This document shows positions 7,943-29,125 of a stretch of 64,000 nucleotides of DNA, in pieces. The stretch comes from Elainellaceae cyanobacterium (GTDB lineage Bacteria; Cyanobacteriota; Cyanobacteriia; CAKZMO01). The notes beneath the pieces are model-generated. The model did not search any database and was not told where the DNA came from. It was given only the letters and a program-made list of their open reading frames with translations. Within the stretch, counting starts at the first letter, position 1. Every line of letters begins with the position of its first letter. Both the position numbers and the translations under genes were made by a program. The DNA is taken from the NCBI GenBank assembly GCA_050330955.1, contig JBHJHJ010000003.1:2484-66483 (forward strand), written 5' to 3'.

Positions 7943-10900
7943 ATGCTAGAAACTACAAGTAATCTTCAGTCAACTGGAACAAATATGGCAATGCATAGCT
8001 CAGACATGAACGGTACTCAAACTGTGCTTTGGTCTGATGCTAGCGAGTGGCTGGGCTTTACACCCAAAGATGGAGACGACGTTACGATTCCAACGGGGCT
8101 AAAGGTAATCCTTGATCAAGACACACCAGAGCTTGGAACACTCGCAATAAATGGTATTTTAGAGTTTGATCAAAAAGACCTTAAATTGACGGCTGACAAC
8201 GTGCTCGTTTTTGGTGAAATGGCAGCGGGCAGTGAAGAAAACCCGCACACTCACAAAACAGAAATCGTTCTCACAGGTAAATCGACCGATCCAGACGTAG
8301 TACTGGCCGATTGGATGGGTGAAGGCCATGGCATGCACGACAGCATGGACGGTGGTGAACACGCTAACCACATGACCAGTCCCATCAATAACAAGGCAGT
8401 TATTGTTGCCCCTGGCGGTAAGCTAAATTTGCACGGCGCTGAGGTAGATAGCTGGACTCAGCTGGATTCTACTGCGAATGCTGGCGATACGTCGATTACT
8501 CTTGCCGAAATCCCCGCAGGTTGGAACGTGGGAGATGCGATCGCCATTGCCCCAACTGATTTCAGCGTCTTCGAAGTTGAAGAACGGACTATCGCAAAAA
8601 TTGAGGGCTCTACTGTATTCTTTGAAGAGCCTCTAGAGTATCGTCACTATGGTGAGCAACAAGATTTAGGAAACGGCAAAGTGCTTGACATGCGGGCAGA
8701 GGTAACAAACCTCACCCGAAACATCAGCATCACTGGCTCTGACGAAGGCGAAAGTCAAATTCTAGACACTCAAAGCGAGCATCCAGACTACTATGCCCGC
8801 GCTGGCTATGGCGGCCATACAGTGTATTTAACAGGCGCAGAGGTAAAGATTGATGGTGTTGAATTCAACGGTCTAGGAAATTCAGGGGAATTAGGCAATT
8901 ACCCTGTACACTTCCATCACACAGGCGATGCCAGTGGCTCCTATGTCAAAAACTCATCGGTTCACCATACATTCCAGCGTGGCTTAGTCGTTCATCGGGC
9001 AGACAACCTACTGATTGAAGGCAATACGATCTTCGAAACGATGAGCCACAGCTACTACATTGAAGACGGGGTAGAAACGGGCAATCGATTTGTCGATAAT
9101 TTAGCCATGATGCCGCGTATGACGGCTGAGGCTTTTCGGATTGACAGCGAAAAGAAATCCCCAGAGCGCCCGACGGGCTTTTGGATTACTAACCAAACTA
9201 ATGCTTTTGAGGGGAATCACGCCGTAGGCATTCGAGGGGGCCAAGGCTTCTGGTTTAACGATCCCGACAAAGTTTCGGGCACAGGATTAGCAAGGAAAAA
9301 AGATACGCCGCTGCTTCAGTTTGAGGGAAACACAGCTCATACAATCAATTTCGACCGAGTTGAAGGCTTGGGCTATCCTCCTAAGTGGACAGGAATTGCA
9401 CTTGATATCGGTAAATCGTTCGATAATCATCCAGATAGTGCACCCATCAAAGACTTCACTGCCTGGAAAATCGGAAACATGGGAATTACGATTGGCCACG
9501 GAGATGAAGTAGATATCGAGAATCCGATAATCGCAGAAACGAGGGTATTTCTTCACACCAAGGACGGCGATCCTCTAAAGATTGTCGAGCCAACTTTTGT
9601 CGCCGAAACAGAAAATACTGTTGAGGGACGTGACATTCGCAGTATATTTCCCAATCACCCTAAGCCGGTCATGGTGGAAGCTGCACGACCCACTGAATTG
9701 GTTGACGCTACCATCATCGGCGCAGATCAACTGGTTGAGTCTTCATCGAGACCCAAGCATGAGGGTAATCTAACTGTCACGCTTGCTGAGAGTAATGGCA
9801 CCTCAGAGGAAACCGTAGAAGAGAGCGATACGGCTGAGCCTGCTGACGATGCGGCTGAAAGTCCACAGGATGCCACTTCACTCGATCTCGATAACGAGGA
9901 TATGGCTGCGGACAATGGCGGCGAGATGCAACCCGAGGAGGATTTTGCGTCAGAGATACCCAATTTAGAAACATCAAGCCCCGAAATGCCGTCTTCAGAA
10001 TCCGATAATCCAACAGGAGAAAATGGTTTGATGAAATTTTATCTTATCAATGCTGAGACAAATCAACTCATTAAACCGCTAACTTCGGGCGAGAGTGTTG
10101 ACCCAAATGCGATCGCAGCAAAAGAATTTTCTATCGTTGCAGAGCCCGACGCCGGTGTCTTTAACCAAGTCGGGAGCATCAAATTTTTCCTTAACGGTAA
10201 GGCGGTCAAAACGGAAAATACGCCTCCATATGCCCTGTTCGGCGATAGGAGTGGAGACTTTCATGGAGAGGCGTTCGAAGATGGCGCTTTTACTCTTGAA
10301 GTAGAAGCCTACAGTGGTCCAGACGGGACTGGTGATAAGCTTGTTGCTGCTGAGTTAACTTACGATGTAGCTGTAGGCACACCAGATACTACCGCACCAG
10401 ATTCAGGTAACACGGCGGTAGACACTGACGGCAGTGACCAACCTACTGAAAATCCTGAGCCAGAGGCGCCCAACACTGACGGCGATGCGGTTACAGACGA
10501 AAGCGCTGAGCCGACAGAGGGCGATGTGGATGGCAGCGTGGATATGCCCACCCAGACTGACGGTGAAGCAGGTGGTGCAACCGACGGCGCTGACGATTCG
10601 CCTACTGATGGTTCGCCTACTTCCGAGGTACCTGCTGAACCAGATACCTCAGGGTCAGAATCTGGTGGCGGTTTGAAGCTTTACCTGGTAGATGCCGGCA
10701 CAGATGAAATCATTGAAGAGCTAACCTCTGGCAAGTCCATCGACGCCGATACCACTGGTGCAGACGAGTTTTCCATCATTGCCGTCCCAGACAGCAGCCA
10801 GGTTGAGAGCGTAAAATTCTTCCTCAATGGTCAGGAAGTTAGGACTGAGAATACCCCTCCCTATGCGCTTTTTGGAGATACCGACGGAAACTTCCGTGGG

Positions 10901-13360
10901 GAGCTACTCGAAGATGGCGCCTTTACCGTTGCGGCAGAGGCTTACAGCGGACAAAATGCCACAGGTGAGAAGCTAAGTGAAGTTGAGCTAAGTTATGAAG
11001 TGAGCGGAGCAGCAGCCCCAACCAGCTCTGCCCCGATCGCTGAAACGCCTACAGAAGGCGGCGGCACTCCGACCACTCCAGAAGATGGCATCGACACTGG
11101 GTCTGGCGATCTAGGCGCAGACCCCACCCCGCCCACGACAAACCCCGACGCGCTGGTCAGTCAGTTTGACCACATCGTCTCGCACTTTGATGGCAACAAT
11201 AGAGACACTGACGACATTGCTGCGCTGCCCATCGCGGCTGCCTTAACCAACGCCAGTGGGTTGCAGGATAAGTCAACCTTCTTCTACGGCAACAACATTG
11301 GTGAGCCGAATATCGAGAGACAGGTTGAGGACATGCGCGCCAGCGCGGCGTTTGCCGAGAAGCTGGGGATCAAAACCCACGACTACCAATCTGGATTGAA
11401 TCAAACCACCGATGAGCTGGTGAAAATCTTCAACTCCGGGCAGAAGGTCCTTGTTTTGGAAGGGGGCCGCATGGAAATGACCTATCGGGCCTTCGAGAAG
11501 ACCGATCCAGACAAGATTAAGAACATCACGCTGCTCTCCCACTCCACCAACAACGAAAACTACACCAGAAATGGCAGCCGGACCTGGAGCGATTTGAAGG
11601 CCGACTTCCCGGAGGCCACGTTCATCGATATCGAGAATCAGAATGGGACAAACGATAGAAATGGCTTTAACAGCTCCAAGTGGAACTGGTTGGACAGCAC
11701 CAGTGACCCACTGCTTCAAGAGCTACGAGAGCACATGCTGGAGGCAGGCCGTAAGTACAATGAAGACAAATTCAACGACCCCTCTGATGCGGGTATGCAC
11801 TTCTTCGCCATCACTGGCAATGAGAATGGCGATCCGCTTGACGCAAAAGCTTTCTTAGAGGCTAACCCACCGTCCTTCACTTCCTCCCCACAATCTACAC
11901 CTGTATCTACGCCCGAACCTAGCCCCGAACCCGTACCAGTGCCGACATCCACTGACACAAGCTCAGATTCACTCGTCTTCATGGCTGAAAATGGTCAAGT
12001 GGTTATCGAGGCTGAGAACACCGAGCTGCAGGGCCACTGGACACCCAGAATGGTCGACGGGGAAGACACGGTACTGTGGGATCCGGCTTACAGTAAGGCG
12101 GCACGGGGTGAAGCTGGAGAGACGCTCTCCTACTCGTTTGTCACTGACGAGGCAGGTGATTACAATCTTGCCATGCGCTTCGGACGAGTCAAAGACGCCA
12201 TGAGCGATCGCGACCTACTGGAAAACGGCCAAGAGCGTACTGACACGGGCAACGATTCGTACATCTCACTGATCAACGCAGAGACAGGGGAAGTGATTCA
12301 GGACCAGGTCAAGGCATCGACTTACCTAGGCAGGTCTGACGAGGAGCTCAAGTGGGGAACCACCATTTCTGTCAATCACCAGAAATCGCCAGCGACGTTC
12401 AAGCTGGATGCGAACACCGAGTATCGCCTAGAGGTTACTGGCCGCTCGGATGGCTATGCCCTAGACCGAATTACCCTCAGCACTGATGGATTCCTCACTG
12501 ATGCAAACGTCCCTCAGTCGAGTACTCAGGTTGGTGCGAACGACACTGCTGTGCTGTCGTCCGGCCCGGCTAGTGCATCACCTGCTTTGTCCACTGTTGA
12601 GTCAGTCTCTCCTGAGTTCTCTGATTCGAACAGCGATTTCGCTGCAAGCGAACTCTCGCAGGAGGTACTAGAGCTTACCAACGCGTTCCGGGCCAAGAAT
12701 GGTCTTGCTCCCCTATCGCTCAATCAAGACCTCACCGAAGCGGCCCAAGACCATGTGCAAGATATGGCCGAGGGAGATTTCTTCAGCCATACCGGCCTGG
12801 ATGAGTCCACCATCGTTGACCGGGTTCAGGAAGCCGGATACATGCCTCAAACTGTGGGTGAGAACATTGCTGCGGGACAAATCACGGCAGAAGAGGTTGT
12901 GCAGGCCTGGATTGACAGCCCTGGCCACCGGGCTAATCTACTCAACGACCAGTTCACTGAGATTGGCATTGGCTACGCGTTCCTAGAGAACGACACGGGC
13001 AGCGTCAACTACAACCACTACTGGGGACAGGCCTTTGGGCAGAGTAGCGAGGCGAGTGACTTTGGCGCAGTACCTCAGAGCAGCGGCGATTTTGTCCGCG
13101 CCATGGCTGAGGCTGGGTTCAGCGGCGGCATGGGCTCGATGGGTGATGCTACTGGTGGTGGACAGACCTCAACCTTTGAGAGCAGCTATGGTCTAGCAAA
13201 TCTTGAGAGTGCAAGCGAACTTCAGGGTGCTGAGCTGTTCAGCGTCTCTGAAGGCATCGGTAACCAGACCGAAACGCATCAAGATGAACTGACGGCAGCG
13301 CATATCTGTGGAACCATGGCGGCATTCCCCATGCCTGAGGTAGACAGCCTGGCTGCCTAA
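7943..13360 (+). CDS. Giant (1805 aa) multidomain extracellular-type protein: G8 domain, parallel beta-helix, acidic linkers, 2 tandem repeat domains, CBM-like domain, C-terminal CAP (SCP/PR-1, YkwD-like) domain
   Basis: Single uninterrupted ORF. N-terminal G8-like pattern (W..W..P..GDDVTIP..LKVILD..LGTL.INGILEF). PbH1-like repeats (NSSVHHTFQRGLVVHRADNLLIEGNTIFET). Two ~110-aa repeats (..KFFLNG..VKTENTPPYALFGD..). CAP signature at the C-terminus (GHRANLL..; YWGQAFG). No N-terminal signal peptide is seen. GC is visibly lower than in the flanking genes. Confidence 0.8.
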   Translation: MLETTSNLQSTGTNMAMHSSDMNGTQTVLWSDASEWLGFTPKDGDDVTIPTGLKVILDQDTPELGTLAINGILEFDQKDLKLTADNVLVFGEMAAGSEENPHTHKTEIVLTGKSTDPDVVLADWMGEGHGMHDSMDGGEHANHMTSPINNKAVIVAPGGKLNLHGAEVDSWTQLDSTANAGDTSITLAEIPAGWNVGDAIAIAPTDFSVFEVEERTIAKIEGSTVFFEEPLEYRHYGEQQDLGNGKVLDMRAEVTNLTRNISITGSDEGESQILDTQSEHPDYYARAGYGGHTVYLTGAEVKIDGVEFNGLGNSGELGNYPVHFHHTGDASGSYVKNSSVHHTFQRGLVVHRADNLLIEGNTIFETMSHSYYIEDGVETGNRFVDNLAMMPRMTAEAFRIDSEKKSPERPTGFWITNQTNAFEGNHAVGIRGGQGFWFNDPDKVSGTGLARKKDTPLLQFEGNTAHTINFDRVEGLGYPPKWTGIALDIGKSFDNHPDSAPIKDFTAWKIGNMGITIGHGDEVDIENPIIAETRVFLHTKDGDPLKIVEPTFVAETENTVEGRDIRSIFPNHPKPVMVEAARPTELVDATIIGADQLVESSSRPKHEGNLTVTLAESNGTSEETVEESDTAEPADDAAESPQDATSLDLDNEDMAADNGGEMQPEEDFASEIPNLETSSPEMPSSESDNPTGENGLMKFYLINAETNQLIKPLTSGESVDPNAIAAKEFSIVAEPDAGVFNQVGSIKFFLNGKAVKTENTPPYALFGDRSGDFHGEAFEDGAFTLEVEAYSGPDGTGDKLVAAELTYDVAVGTPDTTAPDSGNTAVDTDGSDQPTENPEPEAPNTDGDAVTDESAEPTEGDVDGSVDMPTQTDGEAGGATDGADDSPTDGSPTSEVPAEPDTSGSESGGGLKLYLVDAGTDEIIEELTSGKSIDADTTGADEFSIIAVPDSSQVESVKFFLNGQEVRTENTPPYALFGDTDGNFRGELLEDGAFTVAAEAYSGQNATGEKLSEVELSYEVSGAAAPTSSAPIAETPTEGGGTPTTPEDGIDTGSGDLGADPTPPTTNPDALVSQFDHIVSHFDGNNRDTDDIAALPIAAALTNASGLQDKSTFFYGNNIGEPNIERQVEDMRASAAFAEKLGIKTHDYQSGLNQTTDELVKIFNSGQKVLVLEGGRMEMTYRAFEKTDPDKIKNITLLSHSTNNENYTRNGSRTWSDLKADFPEATFIDIENQNGTNDRNGFNSSKWNWLDSTSDPLLQELREHMLEAGRKYNEDKFNDPSDAGMHFFAITGNENGDPLDAKAFLEANPPSFTSSPQSTPVSTPEPSPEPVPVPTSTDTSSDSLVFMAENGQVVIEAENTELQGHWTPRMVDGEDTVLWDPAYSKAARGEAGETLSYSFVTDEAGDYNLAMRFGRVKDAMSDRDLLENGQERTDTGNDSYISLINAETGEVIQDQVKASTYLGRSDEELKWGTTISVNHQKSPATFKLDANTEYRLEVTGRSDGYALDRITLSTDGFLTDANVPQSSTQVGANDTAVLSSGPASASPALSTVESVSPEFSDSNSDFAASELSQEVLELTNAFRAKNGLAPLSLNQDLTEAAQDHVQDMAEGDFFSHTGLDESTIVDRVQEAGYMPQTVGENIAAGQITAEEVVQAWIDSPGHRANLLNDQFTEIGIGYAFLENDTGSVNYNHYWGQAFGQSSEASDFGAVPQSSGDFVRAMAEAGFSGGMGSMGDATGGGQTSTFESSYGLANLESASELQGAELFSVSEGIGNQTETHQDELTAAHICGTMAAFPMPEVDSLAA

Positions 13361-22804: not shown

Positions 22805-23103
22805 CGTGCATTCATAAGGCATGTCCATAAACGATTACATGTTTTAAATGCACTCCCTAAAATGCTATCGTGATTGTGAGAATTAGTACAGTAAGGTGTA
22901 ATCCCCTTATCTAAGTGCAAAAGTTTCCCTTAGAATTAAGGCTGTTCAAAAATTCAATGAGCTACGACGACGGCTCTCGGCTTCGTCTCGTGAAGGCCTG
23001 ATTTCCAGTCTATGGCGATCGCGCTGGTAGCTTATTGGTCAGTCAGCCTCACTGTATTTTATCTAGCCGAATTAGTGGCTCGGTTTTTAGCGGAGATAGC
23101 CTA

Positions 23104-23901
23104 ATGCAACCACCCAGTGCTCAACCACCCGCCCTGAGCATTCGTCGACTCGGCCAGCTCGGATTTGTGGGCTGGTTCAGAGGGCTTAGCGATCGAACGC
23201 GGTTAATTGTAATAGCCGGTTTGCCAGCCTGCGGCCTGTTTTTATTCACCATCGCGGCGCTGCTATTGAAGCCGCCTCAGCAGGTGGAGCGGCGCGACCC
23301 AGCCTCTGAGCGCGACACAATTTTAGCGGTGGCTCCCACGACCTTGGCCCAGATTGCGCCTAGCATGGGCGCCATTGAAAAGGCACAGCGGCTAATGGGA
23401 GTCATGCCCGTTTACGAGTCAGCCTTAGCCGACAAATCTCAGCTTGTGCAGTCAGAGCTGATTTTGCATGAGTCTCAGCGATTGCTGAGAGAGGCGGAAG
23501 AAGAAGCCGGGGCGGGGGAGCCCGAAGACATTGACCAGTATGGATTTTCCATGCCGCGCTGCCGCCAAATGATGGACACCAAGCGCTGCATTCTGCTGCG
23601 CTACGTTGGCGACGGCGTCAAGCTGATGGAGCAGGGGGAAAAAAGCCACGACGTCTATAGCTATGTGCAGGGCTACGTTCAGGCTCAGGCAGCAGCGCTC
23701 GCCCTATTCCCTGTCCAGCCCATGGACGGTGGCCAGGTGCCGGTGAATAGCTGGCTCAACTACCGGGAAGGACTGGCCTCCGTCATCCCTTACCTCCCCA
23801 GCACTGCGGCGGTGGGTCGGGGCCTTGGGGCCGAGCGTCAGCCCCTCAGCCCAGCGGAGAACCTAATCCGCCAGAATCCGCTGCCGGAGGAGGGAGAGTA
23901 A
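23104..23901 (+). CDS. Hypothetical single-pass membrane protein (first gene of a 4-gene operon)
   Basis: Start taken at MQPPSAQ, with GGAG 10 nt upstream. One TM (LIVIAGLPACGLFLFTIAALLL). Its stop overlaps the next gene's ATG (TAATG). Confidence 0.5.
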   Translation: MQPPSAQPPALSIRRLGQLGFVGWFRGLSDRTRLIVIAGLPACGLFLFTIAALLLKPPQQVERRDPASERDTILAVAPTTLAQIAPSMGAIEKAQRLMGVMPVYESALADKSQLVQSELILHESQRLLREAEEEAGAGEPEDIDQYGFSMPRCRQMMDTKRCILLRYVGDGVKLMEQGEKSHDVYSYVQGYVQAQAAALALFPVQPMDGGQVPVNSWLNYREGLASVIPYLPSTAAVGRGLGAERQPLSPAENLIRQNPLPEEGE

Positions 23902-25385
23902 TGGGGAAGTTCCTATCCAGCCGCATGCAGAAGCTGCTCACCTACCCCTTAGCAGGCATTGGCCTGTTTATGGGGGTGTACGGACTGCACAGCGCCCTCA
24001 CCCCCGACTACACCGTAGATGAGCAGGTGATCGACAACCTCTACGACAAAGCCCGCAAGTGGGAATCATTCGCCCTGACTGAATCTATGTCCAAGCGGGT
24101 CGAGGGGCTGGCGATCGCCTCCATTGGCCTGATTGCCATCGGCAGCGCGATCGCCCTGAGCAACGCTGAGCCCAACCGCCTAGTCCCCGAAAACGACAAT
24201 AAAACGCCCCTCGTCCTGCCCTCCCCCCAGGAGACCCGCGAGACGCTGATCAACCGGCTCAAGGTGCTGCTCTCCAACGAACTGTGGCTAAAGCAGATGA
24301 TTGGCGCTCCGCTGGTTATTGTGACGGGCGGTATGGGGGGCGGCAAAAGCAGCATTGCCAACGCCATTGTTGTGCTGCGCCAGATTCTGATGGCCAACGA
24401 CGCCCTGATCTTCGACCCTGACGCTGACGAAGATTTGGCGGCGGGCACCTGGCTCACCGGTCAAGTGTTCGGCACCGCTAACCAAGGGGAGTTTGGCGAC
24501 ATTGCCCGGGCCTACTTGCCCCTAGCGCTGTCCGGACGAACAAAAGGGGAGCCCGCCATTAGCGTCATTTTTGACGAGGTGTCCAAGTGGGAGCGCCTCT
24601 ACAATCTGGGCAACGAACTCAATCAGCTGGTGCAGTTTGGGGCTCAAGACATCCGCAAAAAGCGGGTGCAGTATATCTTTGTGCTCCACGCCGACAGCCA
24701 GATCACATCAGATATGATCCACTCCCAGCTCCCACCGGGGCTGCTGACTTCCCTAACCACCCAGGCCGCTATTGTCCATGTCCCCGTTAAAGCAGACGAC
24801 TTCGGCAACCCCGAGCCCATGGGCTGGGTGCGCTTCAAACCCCCCAACCAGCCCGATGTCAAGGACAACTACCAGCGGTATGCGGTTCCGGCGCTGCTCA
24901 AGCCCCAAGGTCTGCGCAATGAGAGCCAAAAGATTTTAGAGCACCTCGGCATCAAGCCCGACGTCAACCCTGGCCGCCTCATCACCCCCGAAATTGAAGA
25001 GCTGATTGGGCGCCGACTCAACCTTAGAGATCCTGAAAATATCGACCGGCTCAACCGCCTGGTCGAAGGCCCCACCGCCCCCGGCATCGACGCCTCAGAA
25101 AACCGCCACACCAGCGTGGACTGGCAATACATTCCGCACAACAAGGTTGTGGTGGCCTTCTTCCGCTACATCTTCAGCTCCGCTAGCCCGCTGAAAGCCG
25201 GCGAGGACGACTTCGACGTCAGCGAGCTGGCGGTTTGGAGCAGCGATCGCGAGATCGCGGTTCAGGACTTCAACGCATTTCTGGATATGGTCAATTACTT
25301 CAATCTCGGGCGTTATACTACGGAAGACAAAAGCCGGTGGACCCCAGTGATCTCACCTGATTGCCTGCCGCCGGGTGACCTTTAA
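23901..25385 (+). CDS. Membrane-anchored P-loop NTPase (2 N-terminal TM helices + Walker A/B; T4 coupling-protein-like architecture)
   Basis: TM1 LLTYPLAGIGLFMGVYGL and TM2 LAIASIGLIAIGSAIAL; Walker A VTGGMGGGKSS; Walker-B-like VIFDEVSKWE. Family assignment is uncertain. Confidence 0.55.
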   Translation: MGKFLSSRMQKLLTYPLAGIGLFMGVYGLHSALTPDYTVDEQVIDNLYDKARKWESFALTESMSKRVEGLAIASIGLIAIGSAIALSNAEPNRLVPENDNKTPLVLPSPQETRETLINRLKVLLSNELWLKQMIGAPLVIVTGGMGGGKSSIANAIVVLRQILMANDALIFDPDADEDLAAGTWLTGQVFGTANQGEFGDIARAYLPLALSGRTKGEPAISVIFDEVSKWERLYNLGNELNQLVQFGAQDIRKKRVQYIFVLHADSQITSDMIHSQLPPGLLTSLTTQAAIVHVPVKADDFGNPEPMGWVRFKPPNQPDVKDNYQRYAVPALLKPQGLRNESQKILEHLGIKPDVNPGRLITPEIEELIGRRLNLRDPENIDRLNRLVEGPTAPGIDASENRHTSVDWQYIPHNKVVVAFFRYIFSSASPLKAGEDDFDVSELAVWSSDREIAVQDFNAFLDMVNYFNLGRYTTEDKSRWTPVISPDCLPPGDL

Positions 25386-25420
25386 TCTAGTGTCCATTAA
25401 GTCACCCTCAAGGAGACACC

Positions 25421-25828
25421 ATGACCAAGCATACCGATGATCACGTCGTAATTAACGTAGACGGCGACGATGGCCGTCGCGATAGAAGCGGACCCATCAA
25501 TGAAATTGGCCGCGGCATGGGCAGCATTTTCTGGGGAATGCGCAACCCTATCCGCACTGGGCTGCGGGGATTTGGTTTGTTCTGCTCCGTTATGGGGTTA
25601 ATTACCGTGGGTGCTGGGGTTGTTTACATGGTGCAGGGCGGTGGTGGGCCAACACGGTTGAGTTCCCACCCTGTAGAACTGGGGCGCTGGGGCGCAAGAA
25701 ATCTAGTCTCTCCCCTGTTTGAACCCTTACTCAATCGTCCCCGTGAGTCGGACAACGTGATTACCGGCCCCCCCGAGAAGCCCATCGAATCCCTTGAGGA
25801 TCTCTACCGACAGGACTCTGAAGAATAG
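25421..25828 (+). CDS. Small hypothetical membrane protein
   Basis: One predicted TM (GLRGFGLFCSVMGLITVGAGVVYMV). Same strand as the operon, with tight spacing. Confidence 0.4.
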   Translation: MTKHTDDHVVINVDGDDGRRDRSGPINEIGRGMGSIFWGMRNPIRTGLRGFGLFCSVMGLITVGAGVVYMVQGGGGPTRLSSHPVELGRWGARNLVSPLFEPLLNRPRESDNVITGPPEKPIESLEDLYRQDSEE

Positions 25829-25846
25829 GGATTCTGAGGGCGAAGG

Positions 25847-26947
25847 ATGGCTCGGATTACCATCATTAATCAGCGGCTGTTCTCATCCCCCAGAGCGAGA
25901 AGGCAGCAGCGGTTAAGGGGGCTGTTATCGGCCTTGGTTTTGACAGCTTTGGTGGCGCTCCTGTGGGTTTCTCCTTGGGGCACATCCCTTTGGCAAGGGG
26001 TTCGCCACATCTATGCTCAGCTCCGGCTGAGAAATATTGGGCGTGTCGTCCCTGGAATCTACGGCGGCTATACCTTAAATCAGCACCAAGCTGACGTGGC
26101 CAACACCATTATTCGCGCAGGAATTGAGGCGGGGGCAAGCGAATATGACATTAAGGTCGCGCTGATGACGGCGCTGGCAGAGAGCGACCTTCAGGCTTTA
26201 GACTATGGCGACTTAGATTCGAGGAATGCCTTTCAGCAGCGCCCGTCCCAAGACTGGCCCGACACCACCGATACATTCACGGCGGCGCGGGCTTTCTTCA
26301 ACGGCCACGGCACCAATATCGGGCTACTGGATATCCGCGATCGCATCCGCCGAGATGCGGGGTCGCTGGCCCAAGAGGTGCAGCGGTCGGCCTACCCAGA
26401 GCGCTACGGTGAGTTTGAGCACATCGCTGAGGCCATTGTATTCGCGGCGCGCAAGCCTGGGGAGGAGTCTCTGTCCCTCACCGACGTTGCTCTAGGGGCC
26501 CTCAACGCCAGTCCGGGGGAGCAGGTGTTTCCCCTCAAAGGCAAAACCATGGCCTCCGCTGAGGTGACCAGCGAGTTTGGCTGGCGCTATGGGGGTGGCA
26601 GGCGCGACACGAGCGAGCGCAACTTTCACCAGGGCATTGACCTCGCCTGCGCCTACGGGGAACCCGTGACTGCGGTGGAGTCGGGGGTGATAGAGCATGT
26701 GGATACGGACCCCGACGGCTATGGGGCTCAGGCGATCGCGCTAATTGCTCGGGACGGCACCGAGTTTCTCTATGGCCATGTGCAGAAGCGGCTGGTGGGA
26801 AACGGTGAGCTAGTGAATGCGGGGGCGATTGTGGCGGAGTGCGGCAGCGAAGGGAACAGCAGCGGCCCCCATCTGCACTTCGAGATGTGGTACGGCAGCC
26901 AGCCGAAGGATCCGCGGGGCTATTTGGAGACGCTGGGGCCGAGCTAA
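25847..26947 (+). CDS. Membrane-anchored cell-wall hydrolase: lytic-transglycosylase-like region + M23 (LytM) peptidase domain
   Basis: N-terminal TM (LLSALVLTALVALLWV). A central region has an SLT-like E-S motif (VALMTALAESDLQ ... RAFFNGHG). The C-terminal M23 signatures are FHQGIDLA and GPHLHFEMWY. Confidence 0.75.
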   Translation: MARITIINQRLFSSPRARRQQRLRGLLSALVLTALVALLWVSPWGTSLWQGVRHIYAQLRLRNIGRVVPGIYGGYTLNQHQADVANTIIRAGIEAGASEYDIKVALMTALAESDLQALDYGDLDSRNAFQQRPSQDWPDTTDTFTAARAFFNGHGTNIGLLDIRDRIRRDAGSLAQEVQRSAYPERYGEFEHIAEAIVFAARKPGEESLSLTDVALGALNASPGEQVFPLKGKTMASAEVTSEFGWRYGGGRRDTSERNFHQGIDLACAYGEPVTAVESGVIEHVDTDPDGYGAQAIALIARDGTEFLYGHVQKRLVGNGELVNAGAIVAECGSEGNSSGPHLHFEMWYGSQPKDPRGYLETLGPS

Positions 26948-27063: not shown

Positions 27064-27843
27064 GTGGCTCAGAAAGTTGCCATTTTCAATACCAAGGGCG
27101 GCGTTGGCAAATCGGCAACCGCCACGAACCTCGCATCGGGTCTGGCGATGTTCGAAAAAGAGCGGGTTTTGCTGGTGGATATCGATCCCCAGGGCAGCTC
27201 AGCAGCGTCCTTGGGAATTTCGGTATCGGAGCTTGAGGTGCAGCTTAAGGACGTGCTCAAAAGCGATTCTACCGAGGACTGCAGGGCACTGCTGGATCGG
27301 GCCATTTTGTCTACGCCGAATGGCGTGGACGTGCTGCCGTCAAATTTGCTGCTGGCCACCGAAGAGCTAGCCCTGTGCGACTTGCCCAATCGGGAACAGC
27401 GGCTGAAGCGATCGCTCGCCCTGATCGAAGACGACTACGACTGCATGTTCATCGACTGCCCCCCCAACATCGGCATTTTTGCCCTCAACGCCCTCAACGC
27501 CAGCGACGGCGTCGTGGTGCCGGTGGACATGAGCTACGTCGGGCTTTTGGGAATGACGGGGGTTGAATATGCCTTTGACATGGTGCAGAAAAGCTCTAGC
27601 CACCAAGTGGAGCTGATTGGCGTATTAGCCACCCGCTACGACAGCCGCAAGAACATTAGCCGCGACGTGCTTCATACCTTGAAGGAGCGCTTTGGGGAAA
27701 AGCTATTCAAAACGGTGGTCCCAGACACGGTCAAGGTTTCAGAGGCTCCCCACTACGGCGTCTCTATCTTTGAGCATGACCCCTACGGGGCGGGAGCTTT
27801 GGCTTACCGGGCCCTGATAGACGAAGTGATGACCCGCTGGTAG
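27064..27843 (+). CDS. ParA/MinD-family ATPase (orphan, no cognate ParB adjacent)
   Basis: GTG start. Deviant Walker A NTKGGVGKSATATNLA; LLVDIDPQGS; DCPPN. Confidence 0.8.
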   Translation: MAQKVAIFNTKGGVGKSATATNLASGLAMFEKERVLLVDIDPQGSSAASLGISVSELEVQLKDVLKSDSTEDCRALLDRAILSTPNGVDVLPSNLLLATEELALCDLPNREQRLKRSLALIEDDYDCMFIDCPPNIGIFALNALNASDGVVVPVDMSYVGLLGMTGVEYAFDMVQKSSSHQVELIGVLATRYDSRKNISRDVLHTLKERFGEKLFKTVVPDTVKVSEAPHYGVSIFEHDPYGAGALAYRALIDEVMTRW

Positions 27844-27999
27844 CGTCAAAAGGCTACTCGGGGTTGCCCTGCATACGCGGTGAGGTTCAAGGCTGACCCT
27901 GGGAAAGAGGGTGGCCCTAGAATAAAAGTATTAACATTTTATTGCAAGCTAGTTGACAAGTTGGTATTTGTTTAGCATTACGCTGGCCCTCACCCCCGG

Positions 28000-28060
28000 C
28001 TCCTCTCCCAATTTTGGGAGAGGGGAGTCTGGTTCCCTTCCCTCAAAATTGGGGGAAGGG
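28000..28060. repeat. Pair of adjacent palindromic hairpin elements
   Basis: CTCCTCTCCCAATTTTGGGAGAGGGGAG and CCCTTCCCTCAAAATTGGGGGAAGGG are each near-perfect palindromes with an AT loop. The ORF-track ORF 27953-28141 is just a read-through of these. Confidence 0.5.
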
Positions 28061-28219
28061 TTAGGGATGGGGGCTTTCCAGGACGCTCAACAGATACACA
28101 AGTTGACCAGCATGCAGACAAAAAGGATTCAATCTTGGTGAACGAGCCATTTCAAGCAACATGGCCGGCACGACTATCCCTGATTGCTTCCTGACTTTAC
28201 TCACCAGATCAACCTATTT

Positions 28220-29125
28220 ATGACCAGCGCGACCCGTTTGCCTCAAGCTGCGAATATTTCTGAATCAATAGACGATGCCCTGTTACGTATCGTAGTTAGA
28301 AACGGCATTTGGCTTGTTGGCATTCCCTCTTGGCTCTATGGTCTTGTCGATCGGGGGATTGCTGCTGCTGCCGATGGGTATGTCTCCATGGTTGAGCTTT
28401 TCTATATCCTCAGCATCTCCGCGCTGTTCACGGGCTGGCTGTGGATGAAGCCCAATCAGTACCGCCGCTCAGACAACGCCATTACGCTGCAGCGCCATCA
28501 GCTCCAGTGGGGGGAATGCCCCAACTACCTACAGGCGGCCCGCGTTCGCATGGTCGAGCTTTACGAGCAGCATGTGGTAGGGCAGGCCTACGAGCTGCCG
28601 CTGCCCTACTACTGTCAGATCTATCACCTGCTCAACTTGAAGCACCTGGAAAGCGTCCATAGCTTCAGCCTAGGAAACCTCAAAGTGCTGGGAGTGAACG
28701 ATTTTCAAACCACGCCCGCTGGCGGCATCATCCGATTTCGCACGGCGCTGTCGTCTTCAGCCCACGTTTTGCGGCTGTGGCGTCAACCTGAGGTCGAGGT
28801 TGAGCTCGTGCTGCACGACTCCTACACCGTGGAGCTGCGAATTCCGGTCTACGGCGACAGGCGGATTATCGTACTGTTCAACGTCCTGCCGATGGCGAAC
28901 GAGCACCACCAGTTATTTATCGATATTTATAGTGATCTAAATTGGCCCAAGCTGCTGCTTGAGCCACTATTAGACGTGGCATCGTCGTTGACCCTGCTAG
29001 AGGATCTGTCCTACCTGCGCCAGCTCAGCGAGCGCAGAGAGCAGTCCGCCGCTGCAAAGCGACAGCAGCCTACCCTTTTTCTGCTAAATCGCTTTGTTGA
29101 GCTGTATGGTTCGACCTGGAAATAA
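28220..29125 (+). CDS. Hypothetical protein (about 300 aa, one hydrophobic segment)
   Basis: ORF downstream of parA. ATG at 28220 preferred over the TTG at 28184. No recognisable motifs. Confidence 0.4.
   Translation: MTSATRLPQAANISESIDDALLRIVVRNGIWLVGIPSWLYGLVDRGIAAAADGYVSMVELFYILSISALFTGWLWMKPNQYRRSDNAITLQRHQLQWGECPNYLQAARVRMVELYEQHVVGQAYELPLPYYCQIYHLLNLKHLESVHSFSLGNLKVLGVNDFQTTPAGGIIRFRTALSSSAHVLRLWRQPEVEVELVLHDSYTVELRIPVYGDRRIIVLFNVLPMANEHHQLFIDIYSDLNWPKLLLEPLLDVASSLTLLEDLSYLRQLSERREQSAAAKRQQPTLFLLNRFVELYGSTWK

Follow-up and report, generated by a model that had tools for sequence, protein, structure and literature searches.

The locus described here lies within a 64,000-nucleotide stretch of the genome of an Elainellaceae cyanobacterium (the window) and comprises four co-directional genes on the + strand between positions 23104 and 26947. 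These encode a bitopic membrane protein (orf1, 23104..23901, 265 aa), a P-loop ATPase with two transmembrane (TM) helices (orf2, 23901..25385, 494 aa), a small bitopic protein (orf3, 25421..25828, 135 aa) and a TM-anchored enzyme that combines a muramidase with an M23 hydrolase (orf4, 25847..26947, 366 aa). The original prediction had described a four-gene membrane-embedded unit, and this proves to be real, all four ORFs being present at the coordinates just given; hydropathy and charge bear out that every product is membrane-anchored, with one TM segment each in orf1, orf3 and orf4 and two in orf2. The genes are tightly spaced, although the overlap or abutment through TAATG that had been ascribed to them applies to orf1 and orf2 only, the remaining two gaps measuring 35 and 18 nt. 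The length of 288 aa first given for the orf1 protein was counted from a TTG at 23035 and has to be revised to 265 aa from an ATG: the TTG start is unsupported, given the SD sequence (GGAG) before the ATG and the 265 aa called by gene callers in the related loci L001 and L003. The N-in topologies of the proteins place the domains of orf1 and orf4 in the periplasm and the ATPase domain of orf2 in the cytoplasm. The orphan ParA gene that follows does not belong to the unit: synteny with sister genomes ends exactly at the stop codon of orf4.

Upstream of orf1 lies a conserved non-coding block (22855..22965, + strand), a putative promoter/operator or leader. Its conservation among the window, L001 and L003 is visibly above that of coding DNA (~79% identity); it is partially conserved in L019 and L020 and has no match in Rfam. 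At the 5′ edge of this block, where similarity to the sister genomes sets in again, a consensus scan alone picks out a promoter-like site (ATTACA-18-TAAAAT, 22834..22863, + strand). A putative terminator-like match, consisting of a hairpin and then a T-run, is found on the + strand just before the orf1 SD/ATG (23065..23080), its stem (CCGA..TCGG) being retained in the window, L001 and L003.

The most readily characterised product is that of orf4, a bifunctional peptidoglycan hydrolase with an N-terminal TM anchor (aa 26-41). The N-terminal catalytic domain (aa ~70-200, 26054..26446, + strand) is a GH184 muramidase with Glu112 in an invariant ES motif. A profile built from 18 such N-domains matches the solved GH184 muramidases 8b2h (5.4e-30) and 8b2e (4e-29), and the ES, DS..FQQR and VQxSAYP motifs (VQRSAYP in the window) align with these structures, the catalytic Glu being kept. 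These fungal enzymes (PDB 8B2E and 8B2H) are thus homologous to the orf4 N-domain and share its catalytic Glu; the family and the assignment of that residue have been described, and bacterial members exist, yet they lay outside the experiments of that study (PMC10394673). The second domain (aa 260-356, 26624..26914, + strand) is an M23 (LytM-type) metallopeptidase that matches Pfam PF01551 at 9.1e-23 (80.7 bits against a gathering cutoff of 28.7) and M23 chains in the PDB down to 1.9e-14, with the zinc ligands HxxxD (HQGID, 261-265) and HxH (HLH, 342-344) intact. An SLT-type E-S motif combined with LytM had been foreseen for this protein; its bifunctional, TM-anchored and M23 character all hold, but the glycosidase is a GH184 muramidase. 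An SLT/VirB1 lytic transglycosylase (GH23) identity of the N-domain is rejected, the only such match being to SLT_3 below threshold (E 0.045-0.05; gathering score 27 bits). In orthologous blocks the glycosidase is replaced by GH108, GH24 or Phage_lysozyme2 domains and the peptidase by NlpC/P60, and the plan of glycosidase, peptidase and TM anchor is retained despite these swaps; this plan is typical of the hydrolases of monoderm conjugation systems. One Streptomyces GH184+M23 homologue adjoins a cluster encoding a VirD4-type coupling protein.

The orf2 protein is an FtsK/TcpA-like membrane-anchored ATPase of a rare, unnamed family. Both of its TM helices are N-terminal (TM1, aa 12-33; TM2, aa 70-86) and are followed by a Walker A motif (GGMGGGKSS, aa 143-151), a DPDAD motif (172-176) and a Walker B motif (VIFDE, 222-226), the Walker pair being of the type seen in the FtsK-HerA superfamily, with a Walker B of the form hhhhDE. 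Across 32 members of the family, G146, K149 and E226 are invariant, as are R252 and H263, whilst D225 and D172 are nearly so; D172-P173 is invariant in a 10-member subset. In sequence, R252, H263 and D172-P173 lie where the arginine finger, polar sensor and DP motif of FtsK-HerA enzymes would be expected. The fold of the structural model, a monomer only, is nearest to FtsK/HerA/VirB4/VirD4-type motors, and belongs with those of translocases that move a substrate (TcpA, FtsK, EccC), not with those of ABC-type regulators. The secondary structure predicted in the model for the C-terminal domain (aa 414-482) follows the order H-(S)-H-H-S-S and is winged-helix-like; hhalign finds no likeness to FtsK gamma sequences, and a conserved NWGK motif of this domain is degenerate in the window copy.

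The two-helix anchor had been likened to that of VirD4/TraG-type proteins. Two N-terminal helices are indeed present, but the likeness of the ATPase is to FtsK/TcpA and not to VirD4/TraG: no match is obtained with the T4SS-DNA_transf, TrwB_AAD_bind or TraG-D_C models. In its architecture, two TM helices and one motor domain within ~500 aa, orf2 is similar to TcpA-type coupling proteins. The window protein has no match to FtsK_SpoIIIE/TcpA (PF01580) or to the NCBIfam conjugation models, PF01580 is touched by only two of 32 relatives (E 0.006 or worse), and a family profile run against PDB sequences aligns with P-loop stretches only. The protein had been left outside any named family, with homology to a housekeeping FtsK or Zot family as the point to check; no such match was found and the placement stands. 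The family has 41 representatives among 1.84 billion proteins, with a patchy distribution.

Neither bitopic partner matches a named family. The orf1 protein has a TM segment at aa 34-55 and a periplasmic domain, probably disulfide-bonded, with two invariant cysteines (C153, C162) and an RYxGDG motif; its AF2 model is unreliable (pLDDT 48). It is encoded directly upstream of the ATPase gene in all related loci and evolves under tight constraint (dN/dS 0.014-0.028). The orf3 protein, with its single TM segment at aa 50-71, is found by BLAST in most related loci (dN/dS 0.06-0.075).

Conservation of gene order, counted for related loci whose contig reaches far enough, is strong: the four families occur in unchanged order at 13 related cyanobacterial places, with ATPase identity falling to ~25%, so the synteny across relatives that had been put forward as a check is kept wherever the contig suffices. 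One genome carries two copies of the block. Many of the related blocks adjoin plasmid or integrative-element backbone genes, including those for Prim-Pol/PriCT, DUF3987, AAA_25, VapE, RepA (RPA), a ParM-like ALP, ParA/ParB and the XisAC integrase. No VirB4 is matched in the flanks of related loci, where some ORFs have no family match of any kind, and no relaxase domain is found either there or among the window ORFs scanned.

The surroundings in the window lineage are different. The window and two sister genomes carry the block on the chromosome, syntenic beside gmd and apart from any recognisable mobile-element backbone. Purifying selection acts strongly on each of the four genes (dN/dS 0.014-0.098, dS being above 1), the constraint on the block being equal to that on gmd. 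The predicted absence of relaxase, VirB4 and integrase holds for the window ORFs scanned, no phage genes were found in the window and the composition is host-like, as anticipated, the density of HIP1 being 1.30/kb within the module and 1.41/kb elsewhere. HIP1 (GCGATCGC) is also the sole recurring short word in a search for clt-type repeats: neither inside the module nor next to it were 7- or 8-mers found in clusters, whether in the window or in L001, L003 and L005, and no oriT came to light. The view that this is not an obvious mobile element is correct for the window but not elsewhere, where the same block sits amid plasmid and integrative-element backbone genes. In this genome and its sisters, the block is an operon of the chromosome that is inherited stably and kept by selection; its chromosomal position, lack of a mobile backbone and strong conservation suggest a function at the level of the host that need not be DNA transfer.

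What might such a block do? The reading we favour, tentatively and at a little under an even chance, is that the products of the four genes work together as a single inner-membrane machine of an as yet unnamed type: a minimal FtsK/TcpA-type module for DNA translocation, equipped with a wall-breaching enzyme of its own, by analogy with actinomycete TraB or Thermus TdtA. In most cyanobacterial relatives the neighbours are replication and partition genes of plasmid-like or integrative elements in which neither a relaxase nor VirB4 is matched, which makes the block most likely the transfer function of those elements. The two-TM ATPase would form a ring on the cytoplasmic side of the inner membrane that uses ATP to pump DNA outwards, whilst the anchored GH184 muramidase and M23 endopeptidase would open the peptidoglycan locally by cleaving its glycan strands as well as its peptide cross-links, with orf1 and orf3 serving as a periplasmic scaffold or gate of the complex. 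The proposal of DNA as substrate comes from the fold relatives of orf2, and analogy with FtsK and TraB suggests that it would be double-stranded.

Known systems share parts of this design. The MPF_FA systems, such as those of TcpA and TcpG in pCW3 of Clostridium perfringens and of CwlT in ICEBs1, have a TM-anchored bifunctional hydrolase like that of orf4. However, their VirB4 (TcpF/ConE), VirB6-like protein (TcpH/ConG) and relaxase are unmatched in the window and at related loci, their hosts are monoderm whereas cyanobacteria are diderm, and the hydrolase here is of GH184 + M23 type. TraB of Streptomyces plasmids and AICEs offers a closer parallel, a functional analogy only: there too a membrane-anchored FtsK-superfamily protein is the sole recognisable transfer ATPase, with no relaxase or VirB4, the elements are small with replication, partition or integration genes as their other recognisable content, small membrane proteins (compare Spd) lie alongside and the hosts are multicellular and filamentous. 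Differences are that sequence establishes no homology between the two, that no clt-type 8-bp repeat cluster is found here, that the winged helix is inferred from predicted secondary-structure order only, that the host phylum is another and that the operon described here includes a dedicated two-domain hydrolase. TdtA, from the small integrative element ICEth1 of Thermus thermophilus, is like orf2 a membrane-associated ATPase of the FtsK/HerA superfamily. It supports DNA donation (‘transjugation’) that involves neither a T4SS nor a relaxase, in a host that has an outer envelope layer, and can mobilise chromosomal DNA (PMC5365140). Unlike the block, HerA-like TdtA is encoded in an operon with the NurA nuclease, a restriction enzyme and a methylase, and no TM helices or wall hydrolase are described in the main text of that report (PMC5365140).

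The chromosomal, gmd-syntenic and host-like setting of the window block, under constraint equal to that of gmd, is what would be expected if the ATPase instead toggled the anchored muramidase/M23 enzyme through its bitopic partners, with the logic of FtsEX-EnvC, to remodel the host cell wall, for instance at filament septa, an alternative that the original prediction had also named. The hydrolase is the only component of an established biochemical activity class, and all the named hosts belong to genera of thin filamentous cyanobacteria. We nevertheless consider host remodelling improbable: most other members sit amid plasmid or integrative-element genes, and a patchy block with 41 representatives, linked to elements and in one genome duplicated, is unlike a housekeeping system, whilst the ATPase has the fold of a translocase rather than that of an ABC-type regulator. 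Even less probable is a prophage or mobile-element cassette for lysis or release, in which orf4 would be a tethered endolysin and orf3 and orf1 its holin- or spanin-like partners. It is true that orf4 is similar to enzymes of phage tails and of phage lysis (phrog_10030 at 2.5e-51 and several endolysin PHROGs) and that, like phi29 gp13, it has a lysozyme-like domain ahead of a LytM/M23 domain; the hydrolase is moreover flanked by small single-TM proteins, and at L015, the only phage-adjacent relative, baseplate and tail-fibre genes lie a few genes downstream of the block. Unlike gp13, however, orf4 has an N-terminal membrane anchor and belongs to an operon with an ATPase rather than to a phage tail, and the strong hydrophobicity of that anchor, with a charge of +7 ahead of it, suggests stable anchoring rather than a SAR-type signal. 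No lysis cassette is known to include a conserved FtsK-like ATPase of 500 aa, no relatives of the ATPase appear in INPHARED phages, IMG/VR (two queries) or BFVD structures, and strong purifying selection in a chromosomal context free of phage genes also argues against lysis.

Type VII systems combine FtsK-like ATPases with small bitopic membrane proteins, and the block could on that pattern be an EssC/EccC-like protein exporter with a single-domain ATPase, possibly secreting the hydrolase as an antibacterial effector. This we regard as highly improbable, with one ATPase domain only, no FHA domain and no WXG100- or LXG-like small soluble substrates in the conserved block, in which only four families recur; the hydrolase, having an N-terminal anchor of its own, would be expected to be inserted by Sec. 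The frequent proximity of defence-type genes (PLD+MZB, type I R-M, TIR, Fic and Trypco1) might point to a role in defence or exclusion on mobile elements, the membrane ATPase expelling or blocking incoming DNA or triggering wall damage as abortive infection. Such genes are common cargo of these same elements, however, so their adjacency carries little weight; none of the four proteins is matched by a PADLOC model, and no defence system is known to employ a muramidase+M23 enzyme. Defence is, in our estimate, the least probable of these readings.

Returning to the translocation module, the block encodes no outer-membrane component although cyanobacteria are diderm, and this counts against it. 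A bolder version of the proposal, which we think unlikely though well short of fanciful, is that the four proteins, a DNA pump and a wall-cutter acting between neighbouring filament cells, represent the first FtsK/TraB-style conjugation outside the Actinobacteria, independent of relaxase and VirB4. Its cargo would be plasmids and integrative elements, perhaps also chromosomal DNA. If adjoining cells of a filament have a single periplasm and outer membrane in common, this would explain why an outer-membrane component can be dispensed with. In the Elainellaceae lineage the chromosome would have taken over the module and retained it for the benefit of the host.

When T4SS classes were surveyed in 2014, very few reports dealt with conjugation mechanisms in cyanobacteria and the sole recognised class was MPF_C, which is VirB4-based. 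A compact module found repeatedly next to genes for replication and partition, on elements where neither a relaxase nor VirB4 is matched, would be a concrete and testable candidate for the movement of those elements and, if the assignment is right, would bring FtsK-type transfer as known from TraB and TdtA into a phylum that is diderm and multicellular; should it turn out to be a wall-remodelling or lysis device, it would still be a new ATPase-coupled hydrolase system. Three unannotated protein families gain their first context and a bacterial GH184 muramidase now has a defined genetic one, in a set of four genes small enough for direct genetics in culturable strains of Nodosilinea, Leptolyngbya or Halomicronema.

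Four ORFs on the plus strand make up the unit at 23104–26947: orf1 (23104–23901, 265 amino acids), orf2 (23901–25385, 494 amino acids), orf3 (25421–25828, 135 amino acids) and orf4 (25847–26947, 366 amino acids). The four-gene unit that had been read from the DNA sequence is confirmed, with all four ORFs present and their order kept in related loci. The orf1 and orf2 genes meet in a TAATG overlap, whereas 35 nt separate orf2 from orf3 and 18 nt separate orf3 from orf4. The length of 288 amino acids first given for orf1 was counted from a TTG farther upstream; the ATG at 23104, with a GGAG before it, is the start taken by gene callers in the sister genomes and yields a protein of 265 amino acids. 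Hydropathy, charge distribution and AlphaFold modelling indicate a single N-in transmembrane helix in each of orf1, orf3 and orf4 and two N-terminal transmembrane helices in orf2. This topology places the large domain of orf1 and both catalytic domains of orf4 on the periplasmic side, and on the same evidence the ATPase domain of orf2 is predicted to be cytoplasmic.

Two sister genomes, a 905-kb MAG contig (L001) and an Elainellaceae MAG (L003), carry the four genes, and share with the window the upstream genes for an HD protein, a response-regulator cyclase and a GDP-mannose dehydratase. Values of dN/dS between 0.014 and 0.098, with dS > 1 across the four genes, point to strong purifying selection, similar to that on the adjacent gmd gene (0.03–0.04). 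HIP1 density and GC3 in the module are host-like, and the rest of the scanned window ORFs are ordinary chromosomal genes (phnI/J, ferrochelatase, formyltransferase, P-type ATPase). Coding DNA is ~79% identical among the three genomes, and a non-coding block 5′ of orf1 (22855–22965) visibly exceeds it in conservation. A promoter-like site (22834–22863) comes before this block, and farther downstream, directly ahead of the orf1 start, lies a conserved hairpin with a T-run (23065–23080). No Rfam family matches the conserved block; possible roles are those of an operator, of a leader or attenuator, or of a DNA site acting in cis.

Scans of orf1, orf2 and orf3 against Pfam, NCBIfam, PHROG and PADLOC returned nothing beyond P-loop noise. 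Exhaustive phmmer searching of 1.84 billion representatives, which goes further than a word-indexed homologue search that reaches only near-identical ATPases, found only 41 proteins related to orf2 at E < 1e-3, most of them of ~500 amino acids; the named ones come from cyanobacteria and are labelled ‘hypothetical’ or ‘AAA family’. No match to the ATPase was seen in PLSDB plasmids or INPHARED phages (tblastn), two IMG/VR queries returned no relatives and the BFVD structures yielded only generic P-loop folds. Invariant positions of the family alignment are the Walker A residues G146 and K149, the Walker B residue E226, and R252 and H263; D172, part of a DPxxD motif, and D225, also in Walker B, are almost invariant. 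The AlphaFold2 model (pLDDT 82.7) comprises two long transmembrane helices, a disordered linker, an ASCE core (amino acids ~109–350) and a C-terminal domain (amino acids 414–482) with a winged-helix-like order of helices and strands. KaiC/RecA-type folds top the list when the model is searched with Foldseek, which is less sensitive here. The domain layout of orf2 resembles that of TcpA, the ATPase of the pCW3 conjugation pair TcpA/TcpG. At the sequence level orf2 is outside the FtsK_SpoIIIE, TcpA and VirD4 families, and we conclude that it founds an unnamed family inside the FtsK–HerA superfamily. Identification as a Zot-like protein or a housekeeping FtsK was rejected, there being no such matches in the family scans.

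The two bitopic proteins also belong to families without annotation. Two cysteines are invariant in the periplasmic domain of orf1, where an RYxGDG motif is also present, and a structure prediction from four sequences (pLDDT 48) is unreliable and too poor to interpret; orf3 is short and weakly conserved.

The hydrolase can be placed more exactly. At the C-terminal end lies an M23 peptidase domain (Pfam 9.1e-23) that is intact and carries the HQGID and HLH motifs. The N-terminal domain had been described as SLT-like on the strength of an E-S motif; the motif is real, with the catalytic glutamate lying within an invariant ‘ES’, but the domain matches solved GH184 muramidases at profile level (8B2H, 5e-30; 8B2E, 4e-29), whereas SLT_3 reaches only E 0.05, so the family is GH184 rather than SLT. 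The closest fold to GH184 is the N-terminal domain of phi29 gp13, the C-terminal domain of which is LytM-like, and bacterial GH184 members exist outside the set studied in that work (PMC10394673). In orthologous blocks the glycosidase has been swapped for GH108 (L008), GH24 Phage_lysozyme (L014, L015) or Phage_lysozyme2 (L009), and in L009 the peptidase is NlpC/P60 instead. The conserved feature is the design, in which a membrane anchor is joined to a glycan cutter and a peptide cutter; hydrolases from the conjugation systems of monoderms have been described with this design. The closest full-length homologues of orf4 beyond cyanobacteria are actinobacterial. At a Streptomyces zhihengii locus (L013, 2025–11074), a GH184+M23 homologue lies next to the gene for a VirD4-type coupling protein and six genes without annotation, which suggests that such hydrolases belong to actinobacterial T4SS-type conjugative elements.

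In all, 13 related places outside the window were found, the sister genomes included; the searches comprised one with the orf1 alignment. The order orf1 family, ATPase, orf3 family, hydrolase is kept even in far more divergent copies with ATPase identities of 25 to 40%, from metagenomes, Nodosilinea spp., Halomicronema sp. CCY15110 and a cluster containing Leptolyngbya ohadii; the host genera are known as thin, filamentous cyanobacteria. The record ends inside the block in L010, L011 and some short contigs, and in L016 BLAST did not pick up the orf3-sized gene. Only the four module families recur between loci. Beside the copies that lie outside the chromosomal ones of Elainellaceae are found Prim-Pol/PriCT replicases with ParM-like ALP proteins (L005, L021), an XisAC-type integrase with a DUF3987 protein (L011), RepA (RPA), ParA and ParB on a 56-kb contig of Nodosilinea sp. 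LEGE 07298 (L016), a Prim-Pol protein with type I R-M genes (L022), ParA (L023) and a VapE-like protein with a transposase (L024). These neighbours are plasmid or integrative-element backbones, and no VirB4, VirB6, relaxase or T4CP domain was detected in any of these flanks. The cultured Nodosilinea sp. LEGE 07298 has two divergent whole blocks on separate contigs (L016 and L022).

We rate the module as a predicted FtsK-superfamily translocase module with a dedicated bifunctional hydrolase, so far found only in cyanobacteria of genera known as thin and filamentous. The original prediction of a conjugation/T4SS-like or wall-remodelling operon is partly supported and sharpened, with the hydrolase moved to GH184 and a following ParA gene excluded. 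The analysis establishes how the block is built and oriented in the membrane, which catalytic motifs it carries, to which fold class the ATPase and to which enzyme classes the hydrolase belong, how well the block is conserved and which genes lie beside it. In the mechanism we propose, orf2 would form a ring that pumps DNA, orf4 would open the wall next to it and orf1 and orf3 would scaffold the periplasmic part. The block would then represent the transfer function of elements in which the other recognisable genes serve replication, partition or integration alone. Such a mechanism has parallels in the actinomycete TraB elements and the ‘pushing’ ATPase TdtA of Thermus ICEth1, which move DNA without a T4SS or relaxase (PMC5365140 for TdtA). 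The module is predicted to work most like the TcpA/TcpG pair or TraB, but could not be assigned to those families or to any T4SS class. Both domains of the hydrolase fall into known families, GH184 and M23, and literature searches found no paper describing the four-gene module.

Several observations count against DNA transfer: the C-terminal domain of orf2 has no detectable similarity to FtsK gamma, there is no outer-membrane component, a search for clt-like repeats of the TraB type found only HIP1, and the chromosomal copy here is strongly selected without an element to transfer. The same membrane-anchored ATPase and hydrolase could instead form an ATP-regulated device for wall remodelling, which we consider unlikely, or a lysis or release cassette, which is less likely again. 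An EssC-like protein exporter is improbable, and a function in defence or exclusion is the least probable of these. Transfer of DNA remains our preferred reading, with the backbone genes beside the divergent copies and the anchored two-cutter design of the hydrolase in its favour.

Other genes are seen near some copies. In L015 (8888–15698), a few genes downstream of the module, genes for baseplate-J, tail-fibre and DUF4376 proteins run convergently with it, so at least one copy lies within or next to a cluster of the myovirus-like prophage or tailocin kind. In L005 (12354–17892) and L021 (14233–16175) the module is followed by PLDc_2 and MZB (DUF1998) genes, with a large gene beyond them in L005; these putatively make up a DISARM-type defence set.

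DNA homology to the sister genomes starts ~290 nt upstream of orf1 and ends exactly at the orf4 stop codon, and the genes downstream are different in all three genomes; the ParA gene at 27064–27843, not syntenic in L001 or L003, therefore lies outside the unit and was rejected as part of it. The module's 3′ edge, where synteny with both sister genomes breaks off (26947/26948), is a hotspot of recombination or insertion. The orphan ParA (259 amino acids, GTG start) is only 31% identical to a plasmid ParA in L016 and is followed by a 313-amino-acid protein for which no family was found and whose only match is to a Calothrix plasmid at 20% coverage. The pair (27064–29125) is missing at the corresponding position of the sister genomes and may be a remnant of another element. 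Between the two genes lies an imperfect 41-nt inverted repeat (27986–28074; 73% complementary, 7-nt spacer), which may act as a terminator or represent a small repeat element. Elsewhere in the window, the gene at 7943–13360 encodes an 1805-amino-acid protein with G8, CEMIP beta-helix and CAP domains; it lies in the lowest-GC stretch (0.45–0.51 vs ~0.57 overall) and may have been horizontally acquired.
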